Positions 21,664 through 58,387 of a stretch of 64,000 nucleotides of DNA are shown here, piece by piece (the first letter of the stretch is position 1; every line of letters starts with the position of its first letter). The translations under genes were made by a program, and so were the position numbers. Source of the DNA: Pseudochelatococcus sp. (GTDB lineage: Bacteria; Pseudomonadota; Alphaproteobacteria; Rhizobiales; Beijerinckiaceae); the NCBI RefSeq assembly GCF_050946405.1, contig NZ_JBMNUS010000013.1:71443-135442 (forward strand). The letters are read 5' to 3'. Under the pieces are notes generated by a model, which saw only the letters and a list, made by a program, of their open reading frames with translations, was not told where the DNA came from and ran no database searches.

Positions 21664-21711
21664 GTCGCGGGGAGAGGCGGGCGCTTGCGTCGTCATCTCC
21701 CATATCGTTAC

Positions 21712-41200: not shown

Positions 41201-44200
41201 CGCCTTCGAGGATGGCGACCTGCGGCTGGAGGGCGTGCGCGTCATGCCCTTCGGCGACCGGAACGCCTGGAACTTCAGCCGTTTCGATCTCGTCTTCCAT
41301 TTTCAGGACGAGGCGGACGAGCTGGTGCTCGATCTCAACTACAACACCGACCTGTTCGACGATGCGCGCATCCTGCGCATGGGCGCGCATTTTGCGGAGC
41401 TGGCGCGCGCCGCAGCCGGCGACGAGTCGCAGGCTGTCGGGGAACTTAACCTGCTGCCGGCGGACGAAAGCCGGGAACTGGCCGCTTTCACGCACGGGCC
41501 GGTCGTGGCGCGCGATGCGGCGGCGACCATCGTCTCGACCTTCGTGGCGGCGGCGCGCCGTCACGCCGGGCGCCCCGCCGTCATCGATGCCGGAGGGCGC
41601 GTGCTCTCCTATGGCGCGCTCGACGGGGCGACGGACCGGCTGGCGCACGATCTCATCGCGGCGCATGGCGTCGCCCCCGGCGAGCGCGTGGCGGTGTTCG
41701 CGAGGCGCACGCCGGAATCGGTCGCCGCCATGCTCGCGGTGATGAAGGCCGGCGGCGTCTATGTGCCGATCGATCCCGACTATCCGGCCGCGCGGATACG
41801 GTTCATGCTGCGCCAGGCCGGCTGCCGGCTGGCGCTCGCCGACAGCGGGGCGGCCCCGGTCGCGGATGTGCAGGTCGTCGCCGTCGCGCCCCGGCTCGCG
41901 GCCGGCGACGCGGCGCAGCCCGTCGACCGCAGCGGCGCGGGCGAGGCGGCCTATGTGATCTTCACCTCCGGGTCGTCGGGCGAGCCGAAGGGGGTGGCGG
42001 TCGCCCACGGCGGTTTCGTCAACATGTCGTCGGGGCAGATCGCCCTTTTCGGACTCACGCCCGAGGACCGGGTGTTGCAGTTCGCCTCGCCGTCCTTCGA
42101 CGCCTCGCTCGCCAACATGTTCATGGCGCTGTTCAGCGGCGCGGCGGTGGTGCTGCCGTCTGCCGGCGACATCAAGAACACGGCCGATTTCCTGGCGCTG
42201 CTGGCGCGGAGCGGCACCACGGCGCTCACCCTGCCGCCGACCTATCTGCGCGCGCTGCGGCGGGCGGAACTGGCCGGGGTGAGGGTGCTCATCACGGCGG
42301 GCGAGGAAGCGCCGGCCGCCGACCTGCTCCATTACGCGCAGCGGCTCGCCGCCTTCAACGCCTACGGCCCGACGGAGTTTTCGGTCTGCGCCACGGTGCA
42401 TGAGGTCAGCGAGCGAGACCGCGACCGCCTGCGCCTGCCCATCGGCCGGCCGTTGCCGAATACGAGCGTGCATGTTCTCGATGCCGCGCTCAAGCCCGTC
42501 CCGGTCGGGATCGCGGGGGAAATCTGGCTCGGCGGCAGCGGGCTCGCGCTCGGCTACGAGGGCGATGCGGCGCAGACCGCCGCGCGCTTCGTCACGCATC
42601 CGCACACGGGCGAGCGCCTCTACCGCACCGGCGATCGCGGCGCGTGGCGCGAGGACGGCGCGGTCGATTTCCTCGGCCGCGCCGACGATCAGGTGAAGGT
42701 GGCGGGCCACCGCATCGAGCCGGGCGAGATCGAGGCGGCGATGCGCGCGGTGCCGGGCGTGCGCGACGCCCATGTCGCCACAGTGGCGCGGGCCGACGGC
42801 TCCGCCGCGCTCGCCGCCTGGTACTGCGCGGACGAGCGCGTGGAGCTGTGGCCTTCGGTGGCGGAGTTCTACGTCTACGACGACATCGCCTATGGCAGCA
42901 TGGCCGCCGACGAGGGGCGCAACCGGCGCTACCGCGAGGCTTTCGCGCGCCACCTGCCCGGCAGGACGGTGGTGGATATCGGCACCGGGCCGGTGGCTAT
43001 CCTCGCGCGCCTCGCCATCGAGGCCGGCGCGCGCAAGGTCTACGCCATCGACAGGCTGGAGGCGACGGCGCGCAAGGCGCGGGAGACCGTGGCGGCGCTC
43101 GGCCTCGACGACCGCATCACGGTGATCCACGGCGACGCCCTGACCCTGGAGCTGCCCGAGACGGTGGATTTCTGCATCTCCGAGATCGTCGGCGCCATCG
43201 GCGGGGCGGAGGGCGCGGCGCGCATCATCAACGGCGCGCGCCGCTACCTGAAGGACCCGGCGGCCATGCTGCCGCAGTTCAGCGACACGCGCATCGCGGC
43301 GCTGGCGCTGCCTCACGACCGGCTCGCGCCGGGCTTTTCGGACATCGCGGCGCATTACGTCGACAAGATCTTCGCGGAGGTCGGCCAGCCGTTCGACCTG
43401 CGCCTGTGCCTCAAGAACCTGCCGCGCGAGGCCATCGTCTCCACCGACGCGCCGTTCGAATATCTGGACTACACGCGCGAGGTGCCGGTCGAGGCGACGC
43501 ACACGGTCGAACTCGTCGTCACGCGGGACAGCGAGATCACCGGCTTCCTCGTCTGGCTGCGGCTCGGCGTCGATGCGGATGCGGTGGTGGATATTCTCGA
43601 CAACCCCGGAAGCTGGCTGCCGGTGTGGCTGCCGGCCTTCGCCGTGCCGGTCGCGGTGGCGGCGGGCGACCGCATCGCCATCACCATCGCGCGGCGGCTT
43701 TGCGGCAACGGTTTCAACGTCGACTTCTTCCTCGACGGCACGGTGACGCGGGCGGCCGGCGAGGCGGTGCCGTTCGCCTGCCGCAGCGCGCATTTCGGCG
43801 ACGGCTTCCGCCGCACGCCCTTCCATGCGGGGCTGTTCGCGGGGGAAGGGGTGCCGCGCTTCGAGGCGCCGACGCCGGCCGTGGTGCGCCGTCACCTGCT
43901 GGGCGCGGTGCCGGCGCATGCCGTTCCGTCCTTCCTCGTGCCGCTCGACAGGCTGCCGGTGACGATCAACGGCAAGATCGATCGCGCCGCCCTGCCGGCC
44001 CCCGGCGATGTCGCGGAAGGAGCGCGCCGGGGAGAGGCGCTTGCGCCGCAGACGCCGCTGGAGCGGCAGGTGCTGGATGTGTGGCGCGAGATCATGAGCC
44101 GGCCGGACATGACGGCGGGCGATGATTTTTTCAGCATGGGCGGCGATTCCATCCGCGCCATCCAGATCGTCTCGCGCCTGCGCCAGCTCGGCTGGAAAGC

Positions 44201-45683
44201 CGAAATCCGCGACGTGTTCCAGAATCCGACCGTCGCGCAGTTTGCGGGCGTTCTCGCGCCGGTACGCGCGCGGGCCGATCAGGGCGCGGTTGTCGGCCCC
44301 GCGCCGCTGACGCCGGTGCAGCGCTGGTTTCTCGAAACGAGCGTGCGGCCGGACCATTTCAACCAGGCGGTGGTGTTGCATGCGGAGGCGATCGACGCGG
44401 CCGCGGCCCAGGCGGCGCTCGAAGCCGTCTGGCGTCATCACGACGCCCTGCGCGCGGTCTTCACCCATGATGGCGGCGGCTGGTCGCAGTCCCTGCTCCC
44501 GCCCGGCGAGCCGCCCCGCGTGGTGGAGATCGCAGCCGATGATCCGGCCGCCTTCGCGGAGGCGGCGCGCGCCGTACAGGCGGGTTTCCGCATCGACCGG
44601 GGGCCGCTGCTCGTGGCGGCGCTGCTGGCGCGCGGCGCGGCGACGACGGAGGATGCAGGGGGAAGCCGGCTGCTGCTCTGCGCGCACCATCTCGTGATGG
44701 ATATCGTGTCGTGGGGCATCCTGATCGAGGACTTCACGGCGGCCTACCTGGCTCATCAGGACGGCACGACGCCGCGCCTGCCGGACAAGACGGATTCCTG
44801 CCGCGACCATGCGCGGGCGCTGGAATCGATCGCGGCGCGGGTGGACTGGACCGGCCGGCTCGGCTACTGGCGCGCGCTGGAGCGGGATGCGCCGCTGCTG
44901 CCGGGCTTCGCCGGCCCGTTCCGCGTCGCGGATGCGTTCACCCTCCAGGGTGTGCTGGCCGCCGGGGTGACGGCGGCGCTGCTCGGCCCGGCCAATCACG
45001 CCTATACGACGGGAACGGAAGACCTGCTGCTCGCCGCTCTTGCTCTCGCGATCGAGCGGCATTTCAGCCGCGCCGGGGCGCTGGTGACGGTCGAGAGCCA
45101 CGGCCGCGAATACCCGCTGGCCGATCTTCTCGGCGATGGCGAGGCGCCCGACGTCACCCGCACGGTCGGCTGGTTCACGGCCTTCCATCCGTTCCGGCTG
45201 GAGGCGGCGTCCGGGATCGGCGAGACCGTGCGCGGCGTCAAGGAGGCGCTGCGCCGCGTGCCGGATCGCGGCTGGAGCCATCTCCTGATGCGGACGCTGC
45301 CGGCGGAATGGGTGGTGCCGGACCTGCGGCCGCAGATCGGCTTCAACTATCTCGGTCAGATGCGTTCGGCCCCCGCCGGCGTCGGCCCCTTCGCCGTCGA
45401 CTGGGACGCGCCCGGCGGCGCGGTGGCGGCGGATGCGCACCGTCCGCATGCGATCGACGTGCTGGCCATGGCGGTGGACGGGGAGCTGCGCGTCAGCCTC
45501 GACGTCGACGAGGCGGCGATCGGACGGGAGGCGGGCGAGGTGCTGCTGCGCCGCTTCCTCGCGGCGATCGAGGAAGTCGTCGCCCATTGCCTCGCGCGGG
45601 AAACCGCCGAGCTTACCCCGTCCGACATGACCTACGACAAGCTGTCGCTGGACGATCTCGATCGTCTGCTGCTGGCCGAATGA
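38244..45683 (+). CDS. NRPS: A-PCP-C-A(embedded PRMT-like MT)-PCP-E (about 2479 aa)
   Basis: ATG 38244 (MTGQGP...) within ORF 37587..45683; A3 FTSGSTGAPKA ~38770, PCP FGGDSL ~39960, C HHIVADVWS ~40540, A4 FTSGSSGEPKG ~41960 with A8 QVKVAGHRIEPGEIE ~42700 and A9/A10 (LPVTINGKIDR) ~43960 separated by ~360 aa insert, PCP FFSMGGDSIRAIQ ~44130, epimerase signature PLTPVQRWF / HHLVMDIVSW ~44300/44685. Confidence 0.9.
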   Translation: MTGQGPVHSTMQPPVQRPMQRSSYVDRFEENARARPAAAALATAAGEVSYGALDARAQRLARRLARLGAGKGVIVGLFLDADETYVAALLGAGKTGGAFLPLPPDLPPLRVAACLAKAECGIVVTLGRHRAALDAALAEAGRSVAVIEADAPDDAGDAAPVARAIGPHDPCYVMFTSGSTGAPKAILGPHRSLSHFLRWEVGEFGLDETVRGSWLAPVTFDVSLRDILVPLMAGGTLCIPDAETRMVPRKLVDWLAREKVTLVHCVPTVLRLITRELADRGGDAGLAVRHLLVAGEPLLGADVAAWRAAAGGRAEVVNLYGPSETTLAKVFHRIGELPADPRRVLPIGRPLPDTSVLVLSNGRLCGPQQIGEIHIRTAYPSLGYLNDAALTAASFIRNPLGNDDADIVYKTGDLGRYLPDGTVECLGRQDNQVKVNGVRIELAEIEVALRAVAGIAKAAAAVHAGGGADPVLVGYYVPDAGAAPSAEAIKAQLGRILPAAMLPHVLVRLDDLPRTISGKLNRKALPRPEELFYAEHAYVAPQGETEDKLAAIWREIFGLTRVGVETAFHDFGGDSLRAIRAVQKIFQTFSVEISLKDFLAAATIRELARLVAAAVPAPVSAIARAADAASYPATPAQNRLWRLDRLGIAPTAYNLTEACELLGPVNEAALERAFRDLIGRHESLRTTFEEDADGNARQIVHHDTPWRLERVDLRRHAEPDRAAALLARDNAGHRFDLHRGPLLRVVLARLPDAEGAARHVLLFNIHHIVADVWSLGVLVREVAALYAAALAGRDAGLAPPALQLRDVAVWQAGRAAAGALDGDRAYWLERFSALPAPLDLPADRPRPPVQTFNGTTRRFRLPADLTGQLDGLARRHGTTRFAVVTALTKALLHRYTGQTDIVVGSPVAGRTDAALADQIGYYVNTLALRDTAEAGARFADLLARVAATVREGLAHQDYPFDALVQELPLERDMSRSPLFDVMVVDHAFEDGDLRLEGVRVMPFGDRNAWNFSRFDLVFHFQDEADELVLDLNYNTDLFDDARILRMGAHFAELARAAAGDESQAVGELNLLPADESRELAAFTHGPVVARDAAATIVSTFVAAARRHAGRPAVIDAGGRVLSYGALDGATDRLAHDLIAAHGVAPGERVAVFARRTPESVAAMLAVMKAGGVYVPIDPDYPAARIRFMLRQAGCRLALADSGAAPVADVQVVAVAPRLAAGDAAQPVDRSGAGEAAYVIFTSGSSGEPKGVAVAHGGFVNMSSGQIALFGLTPEDRVLQFASPSFDASLANMFMALFSGAAVVLPSAGDIKNTADFLALLARSGTTALTLPPTYLRALRRAELAGVRVLITAGEEAPAADLLHYAQRLAAFNAYGPTEFSVCATVHEVSERDRDRLRLPIGRPLPNTSVHVLDAALKPVPVGIAGEIWLGGSGLALGYEGDAAQTAARFVTHPHTGERLYRTGDRGAWREDGAVDFLGRADDQVKVAGHRIEPGEIEAAMRAVPGVRDAHVATVARADGSAALAAWYCADERVELWPSVAEFYVYDDIAYGSMAADEGRNRRYREAFARHLPGRTVVDIGTGPVAILARLAIEAGARKVYAIDRLEATARKARETVAALGLDDRITVIHGDALTLELPETVDFCISEIVGAIGGAEGAARIINGARRYLKDPAAMLPQFSDTRIAALALPHDRLAPGFSDIAAHYVDKIFAEVGQPFDLRLCLKNLPREAIVSTDAPFEYLDYTREVPVEATHTVELVVTRDSEITGFLVWLRLGVDADAVVDILDNPGSWLPVWLPAFAVPVAVAAGDRIAITIARRLCGNGFNVDFFLDGTVTRAAGEAVPFACRSAHFGDGFRRTPFHAGLFAGEGVPRFEAPTPAVVRRHLLGAVPAHAVPSFLVPLDRLPVTINGKIDRAALPAPGDVAEGARRGEALAPQTPLERQVLDVWREIMSRPDMTAGDDFFSMGGDSIRAIQIVSRLRQLGWKAEIRDVFQNPTVAQFAGVLAPVRARADQGAVVGPAPLTPVQRWFLETSVRPDHFNQAVVLHAEAIDAAAAQAALEAVWRHHDALRAVFTHDGGGWSQSLLPPGEPPRVVEIAADDPAAFAEAARAVQAGFRIDRGPLLVAALLARGAATTEDAGGSRLLLCAHHLVMDIVSWGILIEDFTAAYLAHQDGTTPRLPDKTDSCRDHARALESIAARVDWTGRLGYWRALERDAPLLPGFAGPFRVADAFTLQGVLAAGVTAALLGPANHAYTTGTEDLLLAALALAIERHFSRAGALVTVESHGREYPLADLLGDGEAPDVTRTVGWFTAFHPFRLEAASGIGETVRGVKEALRRVPDRGWSHLLMRTLPAEWVVPDLRPQIGFNYLGQMRSAPAGVGPFAVDWDAPGGAVAADAHRPHAIDVLAMAVDGELRVSLDVDEAAIGREAGEVLLRRFLAAIEEVVAHCLARETAELTPSDMTYDKLSLDDLDRLLLAE
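42835..43900 (+). other. domain: methyltransferase with PRMT-like signatures inserted between A8 and A9 of A4
   Basis: SAM motif I VVDIGTGPVAIL; PRMT-like pre-motif DEGRNRRYREAF (cf. Dxx RTxxYxxAI); double-E loop ISEIVGAIGGAEG with two Glu 9 apart as in PRMT1 SEWMGYxLxxE; TH-x loop ATHT. Confidence 0.6.
44290..45680 (+). other. domain: epimerization (E) domain terminating NRPS2, with short acidic C-terminal tail (possible COM/docking)
   Basis: LTPVQRWFLE start, HHLVMDIVSW His motif typical of E not C domains; tail TPSDMTYDKLSLDDLDRLLLAE. Confidence 0.7.
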
Positions 45684-45723: not shown

Positions 45724-47364
45724 ATGAAGCTTCTGGATCTGCTGCGCAAGGAAGCGGGCATCGGCGGGCCGCGCTTCATCGGTTTCGCTGCCCTGTCGGG
45801 CCTGTCCAACGCCGCCATTCTGGCCATCATCAACCTTGCCGCCAGCAATGCGAGCGACAAGGGGGAGAATTTTCACAATCTGATCCTGTTCGGTCTCGCC
45901 ATCGCCGTCTTCGTCGTCACGCAGCGCGCGCTGATGATCGAGGTCTGCGAGAAGGTGGAGTTGCTGATCGACCGCATCCGGGTGCGGCTGATCGAGCGGG
46001 CGCGGCGGGCGGAGTTTCTGGAGCTGGAGGAGATCGGCCGTTCGGAGATCTACGCCTGCCTCACCCGCGAGACGCAGATCCTGTCGCAGGCGGCGCCCAA
46101 TGTCGTGATCGGGTTGCAGTCGGCTATCCTCGTGGTGTTCACGCTGCTTTACATGGCCTTTCTGTCGCAGACGGCCTTCTGGCTGTCGGTCGGCTTCACC
46201 GTCGTCGGCGCGATGATCCATCTGTCGCGCTCGGCGGAGGTCAAGCGCGAGCTGCGCGCCGCCTTCGAATGCGAGAACGCGCTGATCGAAAGCCTCGGCG
46301 ACATGCTCGACGGCTTCAAGGAAGTGAAGATGAGCACCGGCCGCTCCGCCGACATCGCGCACAGGATCGCGGAGATTTCGGCGCGGGTCGGCCGGATGCG
46401 AATCAGGACGCAGACGCTCTACGCGACGGATTTCGTGATGTCGCAGGTCACGTTCTTCATCATGACCGGCATCATGGTGTTCGTCGTGCCGACCATCAGC
46501 GACGCCTATATCGAGGTGGTGGTGATGACGACCACCGCGAGCCTGTTCCTGATCGGCCCGGTGTCGAACGTGGTCGGCAGCCTGCCCATCTTCTCCAACG
46601 CCAACGCCGCGGCGGAGAACGTGATGGCGCTGGAGGAGCGGCTCGGGCGCGTCAACGGCGAGGTGCGGGACGCCGGCGGCGGCTTCCCCGACTTCCGGCG
46701 GATCGCGCTCCAGGGAGCGAGTTTTTCGCACCGGCCTTCCGGCGGCGACAAGGGGTTCGCGGTCGGTCCGGTCGATTTCACGGTGGAGCGGGGAAAGACG
46801 ATCTTCCTCACCGGCGGCAACGGCTCCGGCAAGACCACGTTCATCCGCCTGCTGGTGGGGCTCTATCCGCCGGGCGGCGGCGTCATCCGCGTGGACGGCG
46901 CGCCCGTCGGCCCGGCCAATGCCGCCGATTACCGCAACCTGTTCTCCGTGATCTTCTCGGACAACCATCTGTTCACGGAGCTTTACGGCATCCCCTCCAT
47001 TGATGCCGATCAGGCGGCGGAATTGTTCGCGCTGCTCGAAATGCAGCACAAATCGCAGATCGCCGGCCGTCGCTTCACCACGGTGCGGCTTTCCGGCGGA
47101 CAGCGCAAGCGGCTCGCCCTCATCGCCGCCCTGCTGGAGAAACGGCCCGTCTGCGTGTTCGACGAATGGGCGGCGGATCAGGACCCGTATTTCCGCGAGA
47201 AATTCTACAGGATTATACTTCCGCGCCTGAAGGAAAAAGGCGTCACCGTCATCGCGATTACTCACGATGACGCCTATTTTGACATGGCCGATGTCCACAT
47301 CCACATGGACAATGGGCATCTGACCGTCGTGAAGGACGAATCCGTTCTTGAGGGAACCACCTGA
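45724..47364 (+). CDS. ABC transporter, fused permease-ATPase, cyclic-peptide exporter family (SyrD/ PvdE/YojI-like)
   Basis: N-terminal 6-TM domain then Walker A GGNGSGKTT, signature LSGGQRKR, Walker B VCVFDEWAADQD; SD GGGAGGGA upstream. Confidence 0.85.
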   Translation: MKLLDLLRKEAGIGGPRFIGFAALSGLSNAAILAIINLAASNASDKGENFHNLILFGLAIAVFVVTQRALMIEVCEKVELLIDRIRVRLIERARRAEFLELEEIGRSEIYACLTRETQILSQAAPNVVIGLQSAILVVFTLLYMAFLSQTAFWLSVGFTVVGAMIHLSRSAEVKRELRAAFECENALIESLGDMLDGFKEVKMSTGRSADIAHRIAEISARVGRMRIRTQTLYATDFVMSQVTFFIMTGIMVFVVPTISDAYIEVVVMTTTASLFLIGPVSNVVGSLPIFSNANAAAENVMALEERLGRVNGEVRDAGGGFPDFRRIALQGASFSHRPSGGDKGFAVGPVDFTVERGKTIFLTGGNGSGKTTFIRLLVGLYPPGGGVIRVDGAPVGPANAADYRNLFSVIFSDNHLFTELYGIPSIDADQAAELFALLEMQHKSQIAGRRFTTVRLSGGQRKRLALIAALLEKRPVCVFDEWAADQDPYFREKFYRIILPRLKEKGVTVIAITHDDAYFDMADVHIHMDNGHLTVVKDESVLEGTT

Positions 47365-47410
47365 ACAGGCGGTTGCGTTTTGACGAGAGGCATGCAGGGG
47401 AATGACGATC

Positions 47411-50400
47411 ATGCTCGGGACATCGCAATGGCGTGAGGGCGGCGGAAGGTGGCTGCGCCGGTTCGCGCTCGGATCGGCCGCCGCGGCGGCGGTGACGGGA
47501 ACGGCGCTGGCCGCCGATGTTTCGCAGGTGGGGCCGGTCTTGCAGGGGTTTCTCGATGCGACGGCCTCGCAAGGCACGCTTCAGGGGGTCGCGATCGGCG
47601 TCGACCTGCCGGGTGGCGAAGGGAGCTGGTTCGGCGGGGGCGGCTATCGCGACATCGCCCGCACCGAGCCGCTCGGCGCCGACCTGCAATTCCGCATCGG
47701 CAGCGCGTCGAAGACCTTCACCGGCACGGCGGTGTTGCAGCAGGTGGATCAGGGGCTGATCGGGCTCGGCGATTCGATCGACAAATGGGTGCCCGATCTC
47801 AACGTGCCCGGCGGCGACCGGATCACCGTCGAGAACCTGCTCAGCATGACGAGCGGCATTCCCGACTATCTGGGCGCGGAGTCGATCCATAGCCCCGGTA
47901 ATACGATATTGCAGGAATGGGCCAACTTCCACGGCCCGGCCGGTTCCCACGGCAACGCCGACTACACGCCCGAGCAGCTCGTGGGCGCGGTGGTCGACAG
48001 TCTCGGGGCCAGCTTCGGGCCGGTCGGCGAGATGTTCTATTCCAACACCAATTTCGCCCTGCTCGGCATCATCGCGCAACGCGCGTCGTGCCTCGGAGCC
48101 TCCGGTTGCCGGACGATCGACGAAATGGTCAACGGCATCGCCGCTTCCATGGGGCTTGCCGACACGGTCTTTCCCGCTTCGTCCGCCTTCACGGCGCCTT
48201 ATGCGGAAACGGCGCAGGTCGTCATCGGCGACGCTTCCTATTACGGCGTTCCGCCCGGCAGCAGCTTCGACATGACCTTCCTCGATCCGCGCGTGCCGTG
48301 GGCGGCGGGCGCGGTGTTGTCGACGCCGGCGGATGAACTGAAATGGGTGCGCCAGCTCGCGACCAACAGCGACGGGCTGCTGTCGGCGCAGACGCAGGCC
48401 GAGCGTGTCGGCGTGGCGGAGCCCGGCGAGGTGAGCGGCGTGCCGGTGTTCTACGGCCTCGCCCTCTATGCCATGCCCGGCGTGGGGAGCGGCACCTATC
48501 TGACCGGCCACAGCGGGCTGATCGGCGGCGACACGGCGTCGCTGTTCTACAATCCGGCGCTGGACGTGGCCTATGCCGTCAATTTTCTCGGCTATCAGGC
48601 CAATGCATTGCCATGGTTTCCGCTCTACGGCGCCTCCGACGCCCTGGGCCGTTACGTTTATGCGGGAAGGGAAGGGGGCAATTACAGCTCCGTCATGATC
48701 CTGTGGGCGCTCGACCGCAACGTCACGCTGGCGCTCACCGCGCAGGGCTCGTGCAGCTACGGGGCCGGCCCGCAGGGCGCGGGCGGCGACAGGACCTGTG
48801 CGGGCGACAGCGTGCGCACGACGCCGATCGCCGTCACTGATGGCACGCTGACCATCGCCCCGTCCCACCTGACCATGGGCAATTACTACATCGATCCCGT
48901 CACCGGCGCCGTTTCGCTGGCGCAGGTGGCGCGGCCGAGCCTTGCGATGTTCGGCAGCCATTCCGCCGCGGTGGCGTTGCAGGGCGGGGCCTCGCTCGTG
49001 CTGCCGCAAGGGGCGACGGCCGAGCTGTGGGGCACGAACTCCGCCACCGTCAGCATGACCGGCGCGGACAATGCCGCGCACATCGGCGGCACGCTTCTCA
49101 CCTACGGCGTGGATTCGGTGGCGGTGCGGATTATGGGCGACCGCAACCGGGTGAACGTGCTGCCGACCGGCGCTGTGGTCGGCGCCAGCGCGCCCGCCAT
49201 CGCCATGAGCGGCCGCGACAACGCCGCCGTCATCGGCGGCAGCGTGACGACCTACGGCCACGGCATCGAGCGGATCGCCATCGCGGGCGAAGGCGGCGGC
49301 AATCGCGTGGAGGTGGAGCCCACCGGCTATGTCGGCGGCGACATCGCGCTCGCCGGCGACGGCAACCGGGTGAGGGTCGACGGCATCGTCTCGGGCCATG
49401 TGCCGATGGCGGGAGGCGACGCGGTGCTGAGCGGCGAGGGCGTGATCACCGGCGTCGTGGGCGGCGGCGGCACGGTGGCGCCGGGCAATGGCATCGGCAC
49501 GCTTACCGTCGGCGGCTATGCCGGGCGCGATACCCGGCTGATGATCGAGACCGGGCCGGGCGGCGCGAGCGACCTGCTCGCGGTGGCTGGCCCCGCTTCC
49601 CTGACCGGCGGCAGCCTGCATGTCACGCCGCCGCCGGCGGCGGCGAGCGGCATCTACAATGTCCTCTCCGCCGGCGCGGTGGAAGGGGCGTTCGCCGCCG
49701 CCACCACCGGCGGCCGCGTGGGCCTTGGCGTGCAATACACGCCGACGGCGGTCAATGTCGCGGCGGTCAACCCCTTCCTGTTCGATGCGGCGGTGCGCAC
49801 CGGCGCGGCCGATACCCTGCGCAATCTCGACCTGTTCGAGGAGCGGGCGGCGGCGTTCGCCGCTTCAGCTACTTCCGCCGCGCCGGCCGGTGCGGCACGT
49901 GGGCCTGCCGCCGGCGCGCAGGCCGAAAACCTGAAGGAATGGTTCTCGCGGCGCGGCGCGTCGGCGGCGGGTTCCCGCGCGGCGGGGGCGGCGGTCTGGG
50001 CTTCGGCCTACGGCGCCTTCGACCGCCATGCCGCGGATGGGCCGGTGCCGACCATCGCGTCGGAGGGCGGCGGCGTCGCGGTGGGCGCCGATGCCGAACC
50101 CCTGCCCGGCCTGCTTGTGGGCGCGATGGGCGCCTACAGCCGCACCCAGGCGACGACGCCGGCGAATCCGGGAATGAAGTTCTCCTCCGACGCCTACAAG
50201 GCCGGCGTCTACGGCGCTTACGAGGCCGGGCGCGTGCTGTTCAGCGCCTCGCTGCTCGCCGGCCGGGGCGACGACACCACCACGCGCGCGGTGGAATCGG
50301 GAGCGCTCGCCGGTGTGGCGCAGGGCAGCTTCGACGATTTCCGCCTCGCCGCCCGCGTGGGGGCGCGCGCGACCTTCGATGTGGGCGCGGGCGTGCGCCT

Positions 50401-50836
50401 GACGCCGCGCGCCGCCGTCACGCTGCTGCGGATCGAGCAGGACGCCCATCGCGAGATCGGCGGCATTCCGGGCTACGGCTTCGGCATCGGCATCGGGGCA
50501 AGCACGTATGAACAGGTGCGGTCCGAGGCATCCCTTGCGGTTGCGAAGACTTTCGACGTTTCCCTGGGCGGCTGGAGCGGCCGGCTCACGGGCGAGCTTC
50601 GCGCCGGCCTCGCGCGCGACATCGTGCTGAAGAGCGCGAACGGATGGGTCGACGTGCCCGGTTTCAGCCCCGTCGTCACCGGCGGCTTCAAGCGGAACGC
50701 CTGGGTGATGCCGGTCGGCGGCCGGCTGGAGCTGGCGGCGAGCGACTCGCTCTCCGTCTTCGCCGCCTACGATGGCGCGTTCTCCAGCCTCGGTGGCGTC
50801 AATACGGTGCGCGGCGGCTTACACTGGCGTTTCTGA
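47411..50836 (+). CDS. autotransporter with beta-lactamase-fold (S12 peptidase / class C PBP-like, PF00144-type) passenger
   Basis: Signal peptide; SxxK (GSASKTF) and YxN (YSNTNF) catalytic motifs of class C beta-lactamase/DD-peptidase/D-aminopeptidase fold; central passenger repeats incl. GNGIGTLTVGGY (PATR-like); C-terminal ~280 aa beta-barrel ending ...LHWRF (aromatic terminus). ATG 47411 preferred over 47402 for SD spacing. Confidence 0.8.
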   Translation: MLGTSQWREGGGRWLRRFALGSAAAAAVTGTALAADVSQVGPVLQGFLDATASQGTLQGVAIGVDLPGGEGSWFGGGGYRDIARTEPLGADLQFRIGSASKTFTGTAVLQQVDQGLIGLGDSIDKWVPDLNVPGGDRITVENLLSMTSGIPDYLGAESIHSPGNTILQEWANFHGPAGSHGNADYTPEQLVGAVVDSLGASFGPVGEMFYSNTNFALLGIIAQRASCLGASGCRTIDEMVNGIAASMGLADTVFPASSAFTAPYAETAQVVIGDASYYGVPPGSSFDMTFLDPRVPWAAGAVLSTPADELKWVRQLATNSDGLLSAQTQAERVGVAEPGEVSGVPVFYGLALYAMPGVGSGTYLTGHSGLIGGDTASLFYNPALDVAYAVNFLGYQANALPWFPLYGASDALGRYVYAGREGGNYSSVMILWALDRNVTLALTAQGSCSYGAGPQGAGGDRTCAGDSVRTTPIAVTDGTLTIAPSHLTMGNYYIDPVTGAVSLAQVARPSLAMFGSHSAAVALQGGASLVLPQGATAELWGTNSATVSMTGADNAAHIGGTLLTYGVDSVAVRIMGDRNRVNVLPTGAVVGASAPAIAMSGRDNAAVIGGSVTTYGHGIERIAIAGEGGGNRVEVEPTGYVGGDIALAGDGNRVRVDGIVSGHVPMAGGDAVLSGEGVITGVVGGGGTVAPGNGIGTLTVGGYAGRDTRLMIETGPGGASDLLAVAGPASLTGGSLHVTPPPAAASGIYNVLSAGAVEGAFAAATTGGRVGLGVQYTPTAVNVAAVNPFLFDAAVRTGAADTLRNLDLFEERAAAFAASATSAAPAGAARGPAAGAQAENLKEWFSRRGASAAGSRAAGAAVWASAYGAFDRHAADGPVPTIASEGGGVAVGADAEPLPGLLVGAMGAYSRTQATTPANPGMKFSSDAYKAGVYGAYEAGRVLFSASLLAGRGDDTTTRAVESGALAGVAQGSFDDFRLAARVGARATFDVGAGVRLTPRAAVTLLRIEQDAHREIGGIPGYGFGIGIGASTYEQVRSEASLAVAKTFDVSLGGWSGRLTGELRAGLARDIVLKSANGWVDVPGFSPVVTGGFKRNAWVMPVGGRLELAASDSLSVFAAYDGAFSSLGGVNTVRGGLHWRF

Positions 50837-51541
50837 CCGGGTGTTTCCGAGCCGCATATGCGCGAGGACTTGCGCGTGAAACTCGTCCGCGTTCTCGCGC
50901 AGGAAGAAGTGCCCGCCCGCGATCGTCACCAGCTCGAAACCATCGCCCGCGACCGCCGCCCAGCCGGCGATCTCGCGCGGCGAGACGAGCGGATCGTCCG
51001 CGCCGGCGAAGGCGACGACCGGACAGGTCAGGCGCTCGACCGGAAAGGGCAGGGACGTTTCCGCCAGGGCGAAATCCGCCCTGAGCGTGCGCTCGAACAA
51101 TTCTCGGAACTCCGCGTTGCGCACGATTTCCTCCGGCGTGCCGTTGTAGGAGGACAGCCGGCGCCAGAATTCTTCGGAAGGCAGGTCATGCAGCGGCGGC
51201 ATGCGGGGCGGGGCGCCGGGAGGGCGATGCGCGGCGACCATGACGCAGGCGGGCGCGGGAAGACCGAGACGATCCGCCGCCCGCGCGAGACAATAGGCGA
51301 CGCGCGCGCCAAGCGAGTAGCCGAGCAGGACGTAGGGACGATCGAGCAGCGGCGTGAGCGCCTCGATGAGGCGCGCCAGCAGGAGGGGCATCGAGGCAAT
51401 GGGGGTCTCCGAAAAGCGGCTTTCGCGGCCGGGGAACTGCGCGGGCAGGACTTCGAGCCGCTCATGAGCGCGCGCATGCGCCCGCAATCCGGCGAAGGCG
51501 GATACGCCGCCACCCGCGAAGGGCAGACAGATCAGCCGCAT
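50819..51541 (-). CDS. type II thioesterase (editing TE)
   Basis: MRLICLPFAGGG... GYSLGA (GxSxG) ... alpha/beta hydrolase; start 51541 chosen (typical TEII N-terminus) inside ORF 50819..51703; 18-bp convergent overlap with autotransporter stop. Confidence 0.75.
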   Translation of the reverse strand: MRLICLPFAGGGVSAFAGLRAHARAHERLEVLPAQFPGRESRFSETPIASMPLLLARLIEALTPLLDRPYVLLGYSLGARVAYCLARAADRLGLPAPACVMVAAHRPPGAPPRMPPLHDLPSEEFWRRLSSYNGTPEEIVRNAEFRELFERTLRADFALAETSLPFPVERLTCPVVAFAGADDPLVSPREIAGWAAVAGDGFELVTIAGGHFFLRENADEFHAQVLAHMRLGNTRSETPV

Positions 51542-51882
51542 GGCAGGGCGACCCGTACCCCCGGCGGCGGGAAACCAACGGCGCATGGCCGCAGCAGAGA
51601 CGGACGGTTCCGCTCCTTCTTCGCCAGCAGCGGTAATGTCTCTCTCCATTGCCATCATGTCTTCGGGGTATCGGATCGTGCGCATTATTATAGCAGGCGA
51701 CAAAGGTATAGCTCTCGACTCCGATGGTCAACTATGATAGGTGTAGGATATTACTTTCATGAAATAGAAAGTGTTCTGGACAGTGTGCGCCGGTTGCGTC
51801 GGGGCGGGGCCTGAAAGCGGTGGGCGGTGGACTGTCACGGTTGCGAATTCCATCTCGTTTCATACTCCCGGAGGAGAGCATC

Positions 51883-52817: not shown

Positions 52818-52914
52818 CGATATCCCTGCCCGCATGGCCGGGCGCGGCCGGGTTGCGCCGCGCATTCGATGAACGTTCATGGCCGGCCTTGCCGCCGGTG
52901 CGTCACGGAAGACG

Positions 52915-54318: not shown

Positions 54319-54397
54319 TCCGGCCGGGCACATGTCCGCGGCGGGCCGGCAGCGGGCAGGACGTCACCAGCAACTTCCAAACCGTAATGGCGAAACC

Positions 54398-57300
54398 GTG
54401 CTCTCCCGCGACAACATCAAGGACATCTATCCGCTGACGCCTTTTCAGGAAGGGGTCGTCTTTCACGATCTCATGGAGCGCGAGGCGGCGCACGAGGGCC
54501 AGCGCGCCTACTTTCAGCAGATGAGCTTCACCGTGCGCGGGCCGCTGGATATCGCGGCCTTCCGGCGCGCCTGGCAATTCCTGGTGGACCGGCATGACGT
54601 GCTGCGCACCGTCTTCCGGCCGACAGGCGCGGAGCGGCCGTTGCAAATCGTGCTGAAGGCGCGTGAACTCGTGCCGGATGTCGTCGACTGCCGCGCTCTC
54701 GGCCCGGATGCCGCCGGCGCGACCTGCGAGCGCTACGAGGCGGAGCAGCGGCAGCGCCCGTTCGATCTGCGGCGCGACCTGCTGGTGCGGCTCGGCCTGC
54801 TGCTGATCGCCCCGGAGGAGACCCGCGTCGTGTTCGGCTTCCATCATGTGCTGATGGACGGCTGGTGCATCGGCATCTTGCAGGACGACCTGACGCGCGC
54901 CTATCAGGCTTTTACGCGCGGCGATGCGCCGCGTCTGCCCGCCGCCGTTCAGTTCGGCGGTTTCGTCAAGGCGAGCGAGCGGCGGCGCACGGCGCGGGCG
55001 CTGGATTTCTGGCGCGATTATCTCGCGGATTACGAGACCGCCGTGGCGCTCCCCGGCCGCCGCCCCGTCGCCCTCGACGGGCCGCGGGACAGCCTCACGC
55101 ACGAGGCGGCGCTGGGCGAGGCGCTGACGGCGCAACTCGATGCGCGGGCGCGCGCGCTCGGGGTGACGCCGGGCACGCTGGCGCAGGCGCTCTGGGGCGT
55201 GCTGCTGGCGAAGATGGAGAATCGGCGGGATGTCGTCTTCGGCACCATGGCCTCGACGCGCCTGCCCGATCTTCCGGGCGGCGAGGCCGTGCTGGGGCCG
55301 TGCATCGGCATGCTGCCGCTGCGCATCCGCTACGCGCCATCCGAAACCTTCGCGGAACTCGTGGCGCAGGTCCATGCGCAACGGCCCGGCTGGCTCGGGC
55401 ACGTGCATTGCGCGCTGGCCGACATCCAGCAGGCGAGCGCGCCGCGCGGCGCGTTGATCGGACATTATTTCGTCTATGAGAACTACCCGCTCGACGCGCG
55501 TTTCCGGGGCGAGGCGCAGGTGCTCGCGCCCGGCGTGACGATCCATGACGTGCGGATGTTCCAGACCGGCAATTACGATTTCGGGGCGCTCATGCTGCCG
55601 GGCGAAAGCGCGCGCCTCGTGTTGACCTTCAACAGCCGGGCGGTCGATCCGGCGGCCGTGGCGCGCATCGGGCGCTGGTTCGTGCGGCTGGCGCGGCAGG
55701 CCGCCGGGGAGCCGGACTGCGCCATCGATGCCATGACCCTGCTCGATGACGAAGAGGCGGCGCGAATCGAGGCGTGGGGCCGGGGGGCGGAGCCCGGCGT
55801 GCTTGCGCCCGACATCGCGGCGCTGCGGCGCGATGTCGTGGCCCGTAGGGGCGAGGCCCCGGCTGTGCGGGCCGGCGGGCGCACGCTCTCGCACGCGGAA
55901 CTGGAAGCGCGGGCGCGCGGGCTCGCGGCCTGGTTTCGCCGCGCGCACGGGATCGGGCCGGGCGATCCGGTCGCGCTGCATCTGCCTGCCGGAGAGGGGC
56001 TGGTGACGGCGATGCTGGCCTGCCTGCTGCTCGGCGCGCCGTTCGTGCCGCTCGACCCCGGCAATCCGGCGCTGCGCACGGCCCATATCCTGAAGGACAG
56101 CGGGGCGCGGCTCGTGCTGGCGCAGGGCGCGCTGCCGGAAGAGGCGGCGGCCGGCGTGCCGGTGGCGCAATCGCCGGCCGATCCCGGCGCGCTCGACGGG
56201 GAAGCGCTGCCGGCCGTCGACGCCGACGCGACGGCCTACATCATCTATACTTCCGGCACGACGGGCGTGCCGAAGGGGGTGCGCGTCGGCCAGTCCGCGC
56301 TCATCAATTATGTCGGCTGGTTCGGCACGCTGTCCGGCGCCGGGCCTGACATGCGCACGGCGCTCGTGACCTCGGCGGCCTTCGATCTCGGCTATACCGG
56401 CCTGTTCGGCGCGCTGCTCGGCGGCGGCTGCGTGTCGCTTCCCGACGAGGACGAGCGCCGCGATCCGGCCCATGTGCTCGCCCTGCTGGCCGACCACGGC
56501 ATCATGGTGCTCAAGACGACGCCCTCCTATCTGTCGATGCTCCTCGCGACGCCGGGCGGGGAGGCGCGTCTTGCCGGGGCGGGCGCGCTGCGCCTGCTGC
56601 TGCTCGGCGGCGAGCCGCAGAATTTCGCCGAGCTGCGGCGTCTGCGGCAACGGCTTCCGGGCCTGCGCATCTACAATCATTACGGGCCGACCGAGGCCAC
56701 CATCGGCTGCGCCGCCGGCCCGCTCGACGATCTGGCGGATCGCGGCGAGGGGCCGCAACGTCTCGGCCGGCCGATCGCGGGCGTGCGCCTTTTCGTGTGT
56801 GACGCCGCGCTGCGGCCCGTGCCGCCCGGCGTGCCGGGCGAACTGCTCGTGGCCGGGCGCGGCCTCGCGCAGGGATATGTGAACGCCTCGCCCGCCGACG
56901 CCGCCCGCTTCGCCGTCCTGCCATGGTGCGGCGGGCTGCGCGTCTACCGCACCGGCGACCGCGTGCGCTGGGCCGATGACGGCACGCTGGAGTTTCTCGG
57001 GCGCGTCGACGATCAGGTGAAGGTGCGCGGCTATCGCGTCTCGCTGAAGGAGGTCGAGGCGGCGCTGACGGCGCTTGAGTGCGTGCGTGACGCGGCGGTG
57101 GTGACGGATGCGCGCGGCGGCGCGACCGAGCTTGTCGCCTATGTCGTCCCGGAAGGGGAAAGGCCGGAAGGGGAAACGACGCCGGCCGCCATCCGCGCCG
57201 CTCTGGCGCGGCGTCTGCCGCCGCCGATGATACCGGCGCGCTTCATCGCCGTGTCGCGCTTCCCGCTGACCGCCAACGGCAAGACCGACCGCAAGGCGCT

Positions 57301-58387
57301 GACCGAACACCGGCGGCCGCAGGCTCCCGCGCCCGGAGCGCCGGAGGCGGGAAACGAGACGGAGGAGAAACTGCGCGCGATCTGGCGCGAGGTGCTGTTT
57401 CTCGACCATGTGGGCCTCGACGACGATTTCTTCGCGCTCGGCGGCCACAGCCTGAAGGCGATCCTCGTCGCCTCGAAGGCGCGGGCGGTGTTCGAACGCC
57501 CGCTCACGCTGCGCAGCCTGTTCGATCACCCCACCGTGCGCCGACTCGCCGTGCATATTGTCGGCGGCGCCACGCCCACGCCTGTCGGCGGCGATCGGGT
57601 GCTGCCGCTGCGCGCGGGATCGTCCGACGCGCCGCTCGCCGTCTTTTTCCCGCCGGCGCTCGGCACGTCGACCCCCTACCGCGATCTGGTCGAGCCTCTC
57701 GCGGGCGATGTCGCCTGCATCGGGATGCAGGCGCCGGGTTTCGACCGCGACGAGCCGTTCGCGGAAAATGTGGCGGACTGCGCCGGACATTTCGTGCGGG
57801 CCTTGCGGCCGCTGATCGGACAGGGGCGGAGACTTCGACTGGTCGGCTGGTCCATGGGTGCGCATTTCGCACTGGAGACGGCGTTGCAGTTGGAGGCGGA
57901 AAACGGAGGGCATCGGAGCCCGGCGCTCGAACTGATCCTGCTGGACAGCGCCCCGCCGGCGGCGGACGACGGAACGAACGATGCGTCGGACGGCTTGCCG
58001 GGCTTCGCGGCGTTACGCACGCGCCCTTATTGGGGCCGCGTGCTGGCGATCATGGATGCGATGCCCCCGGCCGATCTCGCGCGCATCGAGCGTCTCGCCC
58101 GGCACAATCATGCCGCGGTGCGGCGACATCGCTTCACCGGCGTCGTTCACAGCCCCGTCACCTGCCTGGAGGCCGCCGATGCGCTTCCCCGCGCGGGCAT
58201 GGAAGGCTTCCGCCGATTCGCGGCCGGGCGATTCGCCGTGCATGAGGTCGGTGGCGATCATTACTCGATGTTCCATCCGCCGCATCTGAACACGGTGCTG
58301 TCGTGGCTTGAACAACTGCTGACGGCCAGCGGCAGCGGCGCGGGCGCGACACCGGCCGCCAGCGCACCGGGATCGCTGACGGCATAG
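54398..58387 (+). CDS. NRPS termination module: C-A-PCP-TE (about 1330 aa)
   Basis: C domain IKDIYPLTPFQEG start and HHVLMDGWC ~54850; A YTSGTTGVPKG ~56250 ... NGKTDRKAL; PCP FFALGGHSLKAIL ~57440; thioesterase GWSMGA ~57850. Start: GTG 54398 (gives MLSRDNIKDIYPLTPFQEG) or ATG 54332; ORF-track start 53873 overlaps SPFH gene and is rejected. Confidence 0.85.
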   Translation: MLSRDNIKDIYPLTPFQEGVVFHDLMEREAAHEGQRAYFQQMSFTVRGPLDIAAFRRAWQFLVDRHDVLRTVFRPTGAERPLQIVLKARELVPDVVDCRALGPDAAGATCERYEAEQRQRPFDLRRDLLVRLGLLLIAPEETRVVFGFHHVLMDGWCIGILQDDLTRAYQAFTRGDAPRLPAAVQFGGFVKASERRRTARALDFWRDYLADYETAVALPGRRPVALDGPRDSLTHEAALGEALTAQLDARARALGVTPGTLAQALWGVLLAKMENRRDVVFGTMASTRLPDLPGGEAVLGPCIGMLPLRIRYAPSETFAELVAQVHAQRPGWLGHVHCALADIQQASAPRGALIGHYFVYENYPLDARFRGEAQVLAPGVTIHDVRMFQTGNYDFGALMLPGESARLVLTFNSRAVDPAAVARIGRWFVRLARQAAGEPDCAIDAMTLLDDEEAARIEAWGRGAEPGVLAPDIAALRRDVVARRGEAPAVRAGGRTLSHAELEARARGLAAWFRRAHGIGPGDPVALHLPAGEGLVTAMLACLLLGAPFVPLDPGNPALRTAHILKDSGARLVLAQGALPEEAAAGVPVAQSPADPGALDGEALPAVDADATAYIIYTSGTTGVPKGVRVGQSALINYVGWFGTLSGAGPDMRTALVTSAAFDLGYTGLFGALLGGGCVSLPDEDERRDPAHVLALLADHGIMVLKTTPSYLSMLLATPGGEARLAGAGALRLLLLGGEPQNFAELRRLRQRLPGLRIYNHYGPTEATIGCAAGPLDDLADRGEGPQRLGRPIAGVRLFVCDAALRPVPPGVPGELLVAGRGLAQGYVNASPADAARFAVLPWCGGLRVYRTGDRVRWADDGTLEFLGRVDDQVKVRGYRVSLKEVEAALTALECVRDAAVVTDARGGATELVAYVVPEGERPEGETTPAAIRAALARRLPPPMIPARFIAVSRFPLTANGKTDRKALTEHRRPQAPAPGAPEAGNETEEKLRAIWREVLFLDHVGLDDDFFALGGHSLKAILVASKARAVFERPLTLRSLFDHPTVRRLAVHIVGGATPTPVGGDRVLPLRAGSSDAPLAVFFPPALGTSTPYRDLVEPLAGDVACIGMQAPGFDRDEPFAENVADCAGHFVRALRPLIGQGRRLRLVGWSMGAHFALETALQLEAENGGHRSPALELILLDSAPPAADDGTNDASDGLPGFAALRTRPYWGRVLAIMDAMPPADLARIERLARHNHAAVRRHRFTGVVHSPVTCLEAADALPRAGMEGFRRFAAGRFAVHEVGGDHYSMFHPPHLNTVLSWLEQLLTASGSGAGATPAASAPGSLTA

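Follow-up and report, generated by a model that had tools for sequence, protein, structure and literature searches.

The DNA analysed here, a 64,000-nt stretch of Pseudochelatococcus sp. (NCBI RefSeq assembly GCF_050946405.1, contig NZ_JBMNUS010000013.1, positions 71,443 to 135,442 of the forward strand; hereafter the window), carries a biosynthetic gene cluster (BGC) of the mixed type that pairs polyketide synthase (PKS) with nonribosomal peptide synthetase (NRPS), and within that cluster a gene for an unusual autotransporter whose passenger is an enzyme of the S12 serine peptidase family. A first-pass annotation of the window had proposed that this enzyme may mature, activate, or detoxify the cluster's lipopeptide outside the cell, and that is the reading that the evidence favours. 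In its more specific form, to which we assign a probability of roughly 0.55, the envelope-tethered S12 enzyme hydrolyses the exported lipopeptide at a D-configured residue as the last step of its maturation or activation. Because this rare enzyme is always found with the same cluster, its most likely task is to trim the lipopeptide after export, outside the cell.

In the sequence of events that we propose, the assembly line would build a beta-amino-fatty-acyl peptide ending in X (a residue left unassigned), a D-configured and possibly methylated aromatic residue, and an Asp-like residue, and the neighbouring exporter of the SyrD/PvdE class would carry this lipopeptide out of the cytoplasm. The S12 protein would itself leave the cytoplasm through the Sec pathway and then anchor its catalytic head in the outer membrane by means of its own 12-strand barrel, with the head held on a beta-helix stalk. 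There, the tethered head would form an acyl-enzyme through Ser98 at the carbonyl of the D-residue, and hydrolysis of the bond would remove the terminal Asp-like residue from a linear product or open the ring of a cyclic one; the final form of the metabolite would arise only outside the producer.

An S12 head with intact catalytic motifs on an autotransporter

The gene lies in an open reading frame at 47402..50836 (+) with a strong coding signature (GC3 of 0.87 and GC2 of 0.57, the GC contents at third and second codon positions, in a genome of ~70% GC). Translation from the ATG at 47411, which lies ~9 nt 3' of a Shine-Dalgarno-like AGGGGA run, gives 1141 residues followed by a stop codon; the alternative ATG at 47402 abuts the AGGGGA run and is therefore the less likely start. 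The 1141-residue product is 100% identical to the NCBI protein P0001, from a metagenome-assembled genome (MAG) of Pseudochelatococcus sp. The annotation of P0001 reads 'serine hydrolase' and no more.

Pfam recognizes exactly two domains in the protein, and both of the profiles that the first-pass annotation had named score well above their gathering cut-offs: PF00144 at residues 55–390 (E 5.6e-40; cut-off 27 bits, score 137.9), and PF03797 at residues 862–1121, matched from position 1 to 255 of a 255-position profile (E 8.3e-29; cut-off 26 bits, score 101.5). A structural model generated with AlphaFold2 (AF2) from a 26-sequence family alignment (mean predicted local distance difference test score [pLDDT] 87.4; predicted template modelling score [pTM] 0.76) agrees with Pfam on the overall layout of S12 head, stalk, and barrel behind a signal peptide, the last being assigned by inspection, and the short motifs quoted in the first-pass annotation (SASK, YSN, GTLTVGGY, and an LHWRF terminus) are all where it had placed them (Table 1). 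By its domains and the model, the protein is a classical (type Va) autotransporter, with a passenger that is predicted to be exposed at the cell surface. The signal region, as judged by eye, combines a basic n-region (RWLRR), an Ala-rich h-region at residues 18–34 with a hydropathy of about 1–1.5, and a cleavage site between A-L-A and a further Ala, the Cys of a lipobox being absent; residues 1–33 are disordered in the AF2 model (pLDDT <50). Twin-arginine export was considered and rejected, as the RR pair of the signal region is not kept in homologues.

Six residues of the catalytic motifs (S98, K101, Y210, N212, H367, and G369) are invariant in 26/26 aligned family members, so the S12 domain is not a dead one; the catalytic Ser, Lys, and Tyr, whose conservation the first-pass annotation had left to be checked, are among them, as is the His of the third motif. 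The mature protein contains Cys only as two close pairs, C227/C233 (48089-48109) and C448/C463, the second pair being invariant in 26/26 and located at the junction of head and stalk. Autotransporter passengers tolerate only disulfide loops of short spacing, and both pairs fit this pattern. The stalk and barrel together give a weak match to the EprS autotransporter. Between them, the linker is poorly conserved in the alignment and has pLDDT <50 for residues 820–857, and the helix that precedes it is not threaded through the barrel in the AF2 model. The C-terminus, GGLHWRF, constitutes an aromatic beta-signal, and a terminal F or W is present in all fused members of the family.

The first-pass annotation had labelled the passenger a class C beta-lactamase, a label that has to be dropped: no NCBIfam class C model exceeds 35 bits, where the cut-offs lie at 415–887 (680–887 for the named class C families), so that every one is missed by more than 10-fold; the best scores are 31.8–34.5 bits for cut-offs of 415–860 (NF033085, for instance, reaches 31.8 bits with a cut-off of 415), and the third motif reads HSG, not KTG. 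The best sequence match in the PDB (phmmer) is instead the alkaline D-peptidase ADP of Bacillus cereus (4y7p; E 1.1e-21 over residues 69–374), at an identity of only ~25% that denotes kinship at the level of the subgroup and not orthology. ADP prefers D-Phe peptides. It is followed by the D-stereospecific hydrolase dHy1 (9s7k; 4e-18) and the Streptomyces D-stereospecific amidohydrolase DAH (3wwx; 5e-17), with Pab87 and the Ochrobactrum D-amino-acid amidase DaaA as further neighbours, and then by weaker matches to AmpC (~1e-8), Lip3 (1.7e-6), and ClbP (1.2e-5, over residues 78–202 only). When the model is compared with known folds using Foldseek, the best matches are the R61 DD-peptidase (3pte), dHy1 (9s7k), DAH (3wwx), DaaA, and ADP (4y7p), with target-normalised template modelling (TM) scores of 0.78–0.83 (0.81–0.83 for 3pte, 9s7k, 3wwx, and 4y7p); AmpC has a TM score of ~0.7, the Lip3/Lip7-type structure 9SN1 stands at rank 47, and neither ClbP nor SurE is among the first 50 Foldseek matches. 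By sequence and model alike, the head groups with the R61 DD-peptidase and the D-stereospecific hydrolases ADP, DAH, and DaaA, and from these relatives we infer that its activity is D-stereospecific.

A second mode of anchoring is apparent within the family. Barrel-less relatives of ~660–730 residues, which sit in the same BGC family, retain the head and ~250 residues of the stalk, and many of them carry a lipobox at the end of the signal peptide (LAGC in P0018 and P0023, AGGC in P0011 and P0012, AAGC in P0013, and FSGC in P0020). Given a lipobox in barrel-less forms and a barrel in fused ones, the enzyme appears to be always exported and tethered to the envelope; judging from these sequences, Alphaproteobacteria appear to anchor it by a barrel and several Betaproteobacteria by a lipid, and what selection seems to favour is a tether close to the outer membrane, and not the autotransporter in itself. 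The barrel-less proteins (P0011-P0013 and P0018-P0023; loci L009, L010, L019, L020, and L023) finish in a short conserved tail that reads, depending on the group, R[KR]LP[PS]LY[MF][QE] or RPTRIIGVP(W).

The rate of change of the protein can be gauged from a comparison of two Pseudochelatococcus clusters, that of the window and that at locus L001. Between them the S12 head is 53%, the stalk 39%, and the barrel 41% identical, against a range of 57–75% for the neighbouring genes (75% for AsnB, 68% for the ABC exporter, and 63% for NRPS2), and the stalk of the L001 protein (B33) is ~180 residues longer than that of the window protein. The faster divergence of the S12 autotransporter than of its neighbours is consistent with a surface-exposed protein.

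A rare family tied to one biosynthetic pathway

A word-indexed search of 5.8 billion proteins identified 27 relatives of the protein, and an exhaustive HMMER search found 49 of 1.84 billion 50%-identity representatives at E<=1e-30, with the fused architecture of S12 head and autotransporter present in 15 of the 49. At the level of species (185,579 species, one genome each), the full-length fusion occurs in ~9 alphaproteobacterial species, comprising two Methylobacterium species, Azospirillum agricola, three Xanthobacter species, and MAGs assigned to Rhizobiales, to Telmatospirillum, and to an unclassified alphaproteobacterium. Shorter forms are found in Sphaerotilus, Limnohabitans, and a Bradyrhizobium MAG, and the next-best matches of the genome scan are generic S12 hydrolases that match the head only. 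The same 185,579 species genomes contain no stand-alone copy of the family, and PLSDB contains no member on a plasmid.

All of the loci with usable flanks (27/27) adjoin homologous FAAL-PKS-aminotransferase/NRPS genes or a TIGR01194-type exporter, and they span Alpha- and Betaproteobacteria, with 29–57% identity and with gene order and orientation shuffled. The exporter adjoins the S12 gene in at least 12 loci other than the window. Among the rearranged examples, the S12 gene is divergent from the giant PKS-NRPS gene in Azospirillum-type loci, the order at L091 (29% identity) is NRPS2, NRPS3, S12 autotransporter, and at L092 the S12 gene is followed by the exporter. (The locus of P0002, taken from the genome scan, is L014.) The first-pass annotation had asked whether homologues might be scattered away from any BGC; we found none that are, all 27 family-level loci being tied to a single BGC family. 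This strict and ancient linkage marks the enzyme as a dedicated component of a conserved PKS-NRPS pathway. The architecture is already present in databases by way of automated two-domain annotation, and has not been studied: full-text literature searches turned up nothing on autotransporters with an S12 passenger, on autotransporters encoded in NRPS clusters, or on the present BGC family in Xanthobacter, Methylobacterium, or Azospirillum, and no combination with an autotransporter appears in a survey from 2008 of the domain architectures of S12 proteins (PMC2605481).

To describe the likely product of the pathway, we aligned the adenylation (A) domains to a fragment of GrsA and read off their specificity (Stachelhaus) codes, a procedure that reproduces the known code DAWTIAAICK. 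The A domain of NRPS1 yields DFWSVGMVHK, which is Thr-like; the first A domain of NRPS2 (NRPS2-A1) yields DVRHLALL-; the second (NRPS2-A2), which contains a methyltransferase (MT) and precedes the epimerization (E) domain, yields DAATIAAVC-, an aromatic, Phe/Tyr-like code; and that of NRPS3 yields DLTKLGHICK, which is Asp-like. Across the family these codes recur as DVRHLALL in 10/10 loci, DAATIAAVC in 11/11, and DLTK[L/F]GHIC in 18/18, at local identities of 47–82%, and the E-domain signature HHxxxDxxSW closes NRPS2 in 11/11 loci where the gene is visible. In the window, too, NRPS2 ends in an E domain, as the first-pass annotation had noted, so the last residue that it adds becomes D-configured. 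With the E domain and the flanking codes conserved, the product should be a beta-amino-fatty-acyl peptide whose last three residues are X, D-(methyl)aromatic, and Asp-like, and the invariance of the codes across Alpha- and Betaproteobacteria points to one conserved metabolite and not to a diversifying family of antibiotics. A D-residue in penultimate position with a single residue after it is, moreover, what DD-peptidases of the R61 type recognize.

Proposed role and its alternatives

The strongest outside support for maturation of the lipopeptide beyond the cytoplasm is an analogy, that with the ClbP paradigm, and notably with ZmaM, EdeA, and PamJ, S12 prodrug peptidases whose own chain includes an ABC domain of the 'cyclic peptide transporter' kind (PMC9889268). 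The ZmaM-type fusion pairs a peptidase with a cyclic-peptide ABC transporter, and the same pairing occurs here as neighbouring genes, the adjacent one being of the TIGR01194 type. Like ClbP, XcnG, and ZmaM, the window protein has the S12 fold with SxxK and YxN motifs and is encoded in an NRPS-PKS cluster, and its predicted mode of action, with a membrane-tethered catalytic domain that lies outside the cytoplasm and acts after export near a D-residue, would also be theirs. Nevertheless, the resemblance that the first-pass annotation had drawn to these enzymes holds as analogy only, since architecture, starter module, and sequence all place the protein outside that family: the match to ClbP is partial, the three-helix inner-membrane domain of ClbP (PMC9889268) has its counterpart here in a beta-helix and outer-membrane barrel (or, in relatives, a lipid), and where the ClbP systems begin with a C-A(Asn)-T-E starter (C, condensation; T, thiolation), which supplies the N-acyl-D-Asn, the assembly line here begins with FAAL-ACP-KS-AT-aminotransferase and has its sole E domain at the end of NRPS2. 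The D-residue of the ClbP systems is thus N-terminal, whereas here it is predicted to be penultimate at the C-terminus. A precedent for the cutting of D-L bonds in lipopeptides is provided by Lip3 and Lip7, S12 enzymes that are secreted and bear an extra beta-rich domain, and whose cleavage alters the bioactivity of the lipopeptides (PMC12903863); unlike the enzyme proposed here, they act on the lipopeptides of other organisms and are not reported within producers' clusters (PMC12903863), and they have no barrel and only weak similarity to the window protein.

Among autotransporters, the SPATEs, EstA (a GDSL esterase), SphB1 (subtilisin-like), and EprS share the succession of catalytic head, beta-helix stalk, helix, and 12-strand PF03797 barrel, behind a Sec signal that in the window protein is predicted by eye, but the passengers of such enzymatic type Va autotransporters are of the S1, S8, or GDSL type and their clients are proteins, whereas here the passenger is of the S12 type, the gene lies inside a BGC, and the presumed client is a non-ribosomal lipopeptide. 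SphB1 is a precedent in that it is reported to be an autotransporter that matures another secreted product. The pyoverdine pathway offers a parallel from the side of the metabolite: a lipidated NRPS product is exported by PvdE and then hydrolytically trimmed outside the cytoplasm by PvdQ, and the predicted order of events here, export by a TIGR01194-class transporter followed by extracytoplasmic trimming, would be the same, although PvdQ is a soluble periplasmic hydrolase of the N-terminal nucleophile (Ntn) type that removes the acyl chain and is neither an S12 enzyme nor an autotransporter.

Several considerations weigh against maturation as the role of the enzyme. Linkage to the cluster is equally expected for an immunity enzyme and cannot separate the two. 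Activation by S12 enzymes is proven only for systems with an N-acyl-D-Asn prodrug module, which the assembly line lacks; the code of NRPS2-A1 was matched to no amino acid (the X of the predicted product), and the aromatic and Asp-like readings are provisional, depending as they do on resemblance to known Stachelhaus codes. A hydrolase at the surface requires the lipopeptide to cross the outer membrane, though the window shows no channel in that membrane dedicated to the task, and the lipoprotein variants may face the periplasm, in which case the common site of action in the family may be the periplasmic side of the outer membrane and not the surface. Co-transcription of the exporter and autotransporter genes is no more than plausible, the argument being the 46-bp gap between them with no terminator-like site in it. 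The architecture, the intact motifs, the fold class, the linkage to the cluster, the lipoprotein anchors of relatives, and the conserved E domain and A-domain codes are seen directly, then, whereas we infer which substrate is attacked and at which bond, that the head is exposed at the surface, that the genes are co-transcribed, and that the role is one in maturation and not in immunity. The narrower claim that the enzyme cuts on the carboxyl side of the D-residue, before the Asp-like residue, is accordingly put forward as a tentative one, which we would sooner expect to fail than to hold.

The alternative that we take most seriously, while still regarding it as unlikely, is self-protection of the kind afforded by TriF and BogQ, in which a tethered D-peptidase would destroy lipopeptide that re-associates with the envelope of the producer. 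ADP, to which we take TriF and BogQ to be related, is the closest solved sequence relative of the head (fold TM score 0.82, three motifs aligned); all three are secreted S12 endopeptidases that cut after D-residues, but they are Gram-positive enzymes without stalk or barrel, the 4y7p chain having 388 residues. Two reports describe TriF and BogQ as BGC-encoded D-peptidases that cut after D-residues (PMC12903863; PMC6095874). A resistance gene would also suit the strict BGC linkage, and the faster divergence of the S12 gene (39–53% identity against 57–75% for its neighbours) is of a kind frequent in surface-exposed defence proteins; the nearby trio of genes for DUF697, small transmembrane, and SPFH proteins, moreover, might be a membrane-protection module. 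Set against this, a surface hydrolase would waste a product meant to act outside, and the invariance of the A-domain codes over two proteobacterial classes suggests a conserved physiological metabolite and not an arms-race antibiotic. The family is, furthermore, never found outside the BGC, unlike resistance D-peptidases, which are reportedly widespread outside clusters.

The remaining explanations carry far less weight. Top fold matches to the R61 DD-peptidase/transpeptidase and to the aminolysis-competent 3wwx raise the improbable case of an outer-membrane transpeptidase or cyclase, which would form its acyl-enzyme at the D-residue, expel the Asp-like residue as a sacrificial leaving group, and, with no need of ATP, hand the lipopeptidyl group on to an amine or hydroxyl, whether for macrocyclisation or for covalent coupling to an acceptor in the envelope. 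The conserved penultimate D-residue and terminal residue mirror acyl-D-Ala-D-Ala, so that the acyl-D-Xaa plus terminal residue logic of R61 (3pte, 1ikg; E 8.5e-20, TM score 0.81–0.82, with the HxG form of motif III) fits the predicted C-terminus, and the FAAL-PKS-aminotransferase start is expected to leave a free beta-amino group; R61 itself, however, is soluble, directed at peptidoglycan, and 23% identical, with D-Ala as leaving residue against a predicted L-Asp-like one here. The thioesterase (TE) domain of NRPS3 can, in any case, already cyclise or hydrolyse, nothing in the sequence separates transfer from hydrolysis, and the acceptor is only hypothetical. SurE shows that the fold, that of S12 enzymes and penicillin-binding proteins with SxxK, YxN, and HxG motifs, can cyclise peptides and prefers a C-terminal D-residue (PMC12903863), but it works in the cytoplasm on carrier-bound thioesters of NRPSs without a TE. 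A SurE-type offloading cyclase, which the first-pass annotation had listed among its candidates, is excluded here by topology, the protein being barrel-anchored and predicted to be Sec-exported, and by the NRPS3 TE. Were the transpeptidase explanation nonetheless true, the energy-storage trick of D-Ala-D-Ala in peptidoglycan would have found a second use, on a natural product, with an autotransporter to deliver it.

About as improbable, if not slightly more so, is an esterase: like the family VIII carboxylesterases, the S12 head would open the lactone of a depsipeptide (formed, for example, via a Thr-like residue) or remove an ester-linked group. PF00144 includes the family VIII esterases, IS11, EstB, and others of which are among the sequence and fold matches, and NRPS1 has the Thr-like A domain required for such a lactone (DFWSVGMVHK); yet peptidases and amidases rank higher (ADP at 1e-21 against 4.5e-9 or weaker for esterases; TM scores of 0.8 against 0.6), and motif III is an invariant HxG of the peptidase type. 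Least probable of all is that the protein has nothing to do with the metabolite and serves at the surface as a DD-peptidase, a binder of beta-lactams, or a scavenger of D-peptides, its place next to the cluster being incidental. Its fold is that of the penicillin-recognizing enzymes, and genes for alanine racemase and a D-amino-acid dehydrogenase-like protein lie upstream in the window; however, linkage at 27/27 loci, maintained through rearranged gene orders and in two proteobacterial classes, makes coincidence unlikely, and the total lack of stand-alone copies in the species genomes, the position of peptidoglycan out of reach from the cell surface, and the failure of every class C beta-lactamase cut-off all argue in the same direction.

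Whether the enzyme finishes the lipopeptide, as we favour, or disarms it, the format in which it is delivered and its predicted location are new among enzymes that tailor natural products or give immunity to them. The S12 enzymes that do such finishing or disarming outside the cytoplasm have so far been those of the inner membrane (ClbP) and those secreted by Gram-positive bacteria (TriF and BogQ); the present case would add the outer membrane or cell surface, to which an autotransporter or, in sister lineages, a lipid anchor would give access. If maturation is indeed its role, it would to our knowledge be the first autotransporter with a small-molecule natural product as its client. The pathway is present in culturable Methylobacterium, Azospirillum, and Xanthobacter (among them M. 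frigidaeris JCM 32048, A. agricola CC-HIH038, and Xanthobacter sp. VTT E-85241), and the predicted D-aromatic/Asp scissile site is fixed across the family; peptidases specific for D-L bonds are scarce tools for assigning the stereochemistry of peptides (PMC12903863).

Other features of the cluster

Coordinates of the S12 autotransporter and of the genes around it are collected in Table 1. As the first-pass annotation had stated, the autotransporter gene lies directly 3' of a SyrD-type exporter gene and in the orientation of the NRPS genes: the gap is 46 bp, and the exporter gene is on the same strand as those for NRPS1, the AsnB-type amidotransferase, and NRPS2. A scan for promoters and terminators was uninformative, with no promoter-like sites and with terminator-like sites at chance level; neither kind of site lies in the 46-bp gap. 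At its other end, the autotransporter gene overlaps the convergent type II thioesterase gene by 18 nt (50819-50836), which leaves no space for a terminator between the two.

Table 1. Features of the S12 autotransporter and of the surrounding cluster, in window coordinates (A, adenylation; C, condensation; E, epimerization; MT, methyltransferase; T, thiolation; TE, thioesterase)
Feature	Residues	Position (strand)	Basis and remarks
S12-autotransporter gene	1-1141	47411..50836 (+)	
Predicted Sec-type signal peptide	1-35	47411..47515 (+)	cleavage after A-L-A; inspection only
S12 (beta-lactamase-fold) D-peptidase-type head	37-443	47519..48739 (+)	PF00144; globular alpha/beta; pLDDT mostly >85
Motif I	S98-A-S-K101	47702..47713 (+)	nucleophile Ser and general-base Lys; aligns with ADP SVTK
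Motif II	Y210-S-N212	48038..48046 (+)	aligns with ADP YSN
Motif III	H367-S-G369	48509..48517 (+)	R61/ADP-type HxG, not class C KTG; aligns with ADP GHGG
Cys loop at head-stalk junction	448-463	48752..48799 (+)	both Cys invariant
Beta-helix stalk	460-786	48788..49768 (+)	AF2; regular short strands, pLDDT ~90
PATR-like motif GIGTLTVGGY	694-703	49490-49519	in stalk
Alpha-helix and Ala/Gly/Pro-rich linker	789-815; 816-859	49775..49987 (+)	AF2
12-strand autotransporter barrel	860-1140	49988..50833 (+)	PF03797; twelve long AF2 strands
PKS-NRPS 1 (NRPS1)		21640..36354 (+)	FAAL-ACP-KS-AT-(ACP)-aminotransferase-C-(A remnant)-T-C-C-A(Thr-like)-T-C; Pfam, phmmer
Gln-dependent AsnB-type amidotransferase		36358..38247 (+)	MCGIVG start, Cys2 present; TIGR01536 434.7 against 267.1
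NRPS 2		38247..45683 (+)	A-T-C-A(MT)-T-E; E domain ~44319-45680, HHLVMDIVSW
Cyclic-peptide export ABC transporter (SyrD/PvdE class)		45724..47364 (+)	TIGR01194, 313.8 bits against curated cut-off 286.2
Type II thioesterase		50819..51703 (-)	PF00975, E 1.3e-30; convergent with autotransporter gene
DUF697 protein		51820-52512 (+)	
Two-transmembrane ORF		52626-52817 (+)	63 aa
SPFH/Band_7 protein		52879-54318 (+)	
NRPS 3		54335..58387 (+)	C-A(Asp-like)-T-TE; terminal module, acts after the D-residue
Phosphopantetheinyl transferase		58261..59166 (-)	PF01648; likely right-hand cluster edge

Several of these genes have features of their own. Residues 2275-3804 of NRPS1 (28462-33051) comprise a module made up of a C domain, an A-domain remnant of ~130 residues from the C-terminal subdomain, and a T domain, followed by two tandem C domains, the second of which has an unusual HHAMGDRAA motif; this sequence organization suggests trans-loading or non-canonical condensation. 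We also considered whether the AsnB-like gene might encode a beta-lactam synthetase, with the S12 protein as the matching lactamase, and rejected the idea on the grounds that the AsnB-like protein retains Cys2, the nucleophile of the glutaminase, and scores above the cut-off of the asparagine-synthase equivalog. The DUF697, two-transmembrane, and SPFH genes are kept as a trio alongside the S12 gene and the C-A-T-TE NRPS in most loci (L001-L008, L012-L014, and L022), even where gene order is rearranged, the small two-transmembrane ORF coding for 58–83 residues in the loci other than the window; the trio might serve the lipopeptide as a module for a membrane microdomain or for protection of the membrane. 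In L001 (17975-19255) and in L004/L005 (15788-17125), the Band_7 gene is followed directly by one for an outer-membrane beta-barrel of the PF10082 (BBP2_2) family, and its product is a candidate outer-membrane conduit for the lipopeptide at those three loci, with no counterpart in the window.

The window contains no TonB-dependent receptor or other siderophore-uptake gene, and a siderophore reading of the product was not adopted. Elsewhere in the family, a TauD/PhyH-type hydroxylase gene adjoins the Asp-like module in L002 and L004-L006, and TonB-dependent receptor fragments are present in L009 (18345-19669), with a gene for a chorismate-binding enzyme nearby; the hydroxylase genes and receptor fragments hint at a product that may include beta-hydroxy-Asp and be able to bind metal. 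Outside the cluster, the genes beyond the phosphopantetheinyl transferase encode an alpha/beta hydrolase, a Bmp-type substrate-binding protein, and a methyl-accepting chemotaxis protein, while ~2 kb upstream, at 17096-19599 (+), lie the alanine racemase gene and the FAD-dependent D-amino-acid-dehydrogenase-like (DAO) gene, a pair that probably represents ordinary catabolism of the dadX/dadA type, though related to D-amino acids. Finally, P0056, a protein of 1109 residues with two PF00144 stretches (the better at residues 81-393) and C-terminal RTX repeats, suggests by its sequence another rare format for the export of an S12 enzyme, that of type I secretion.

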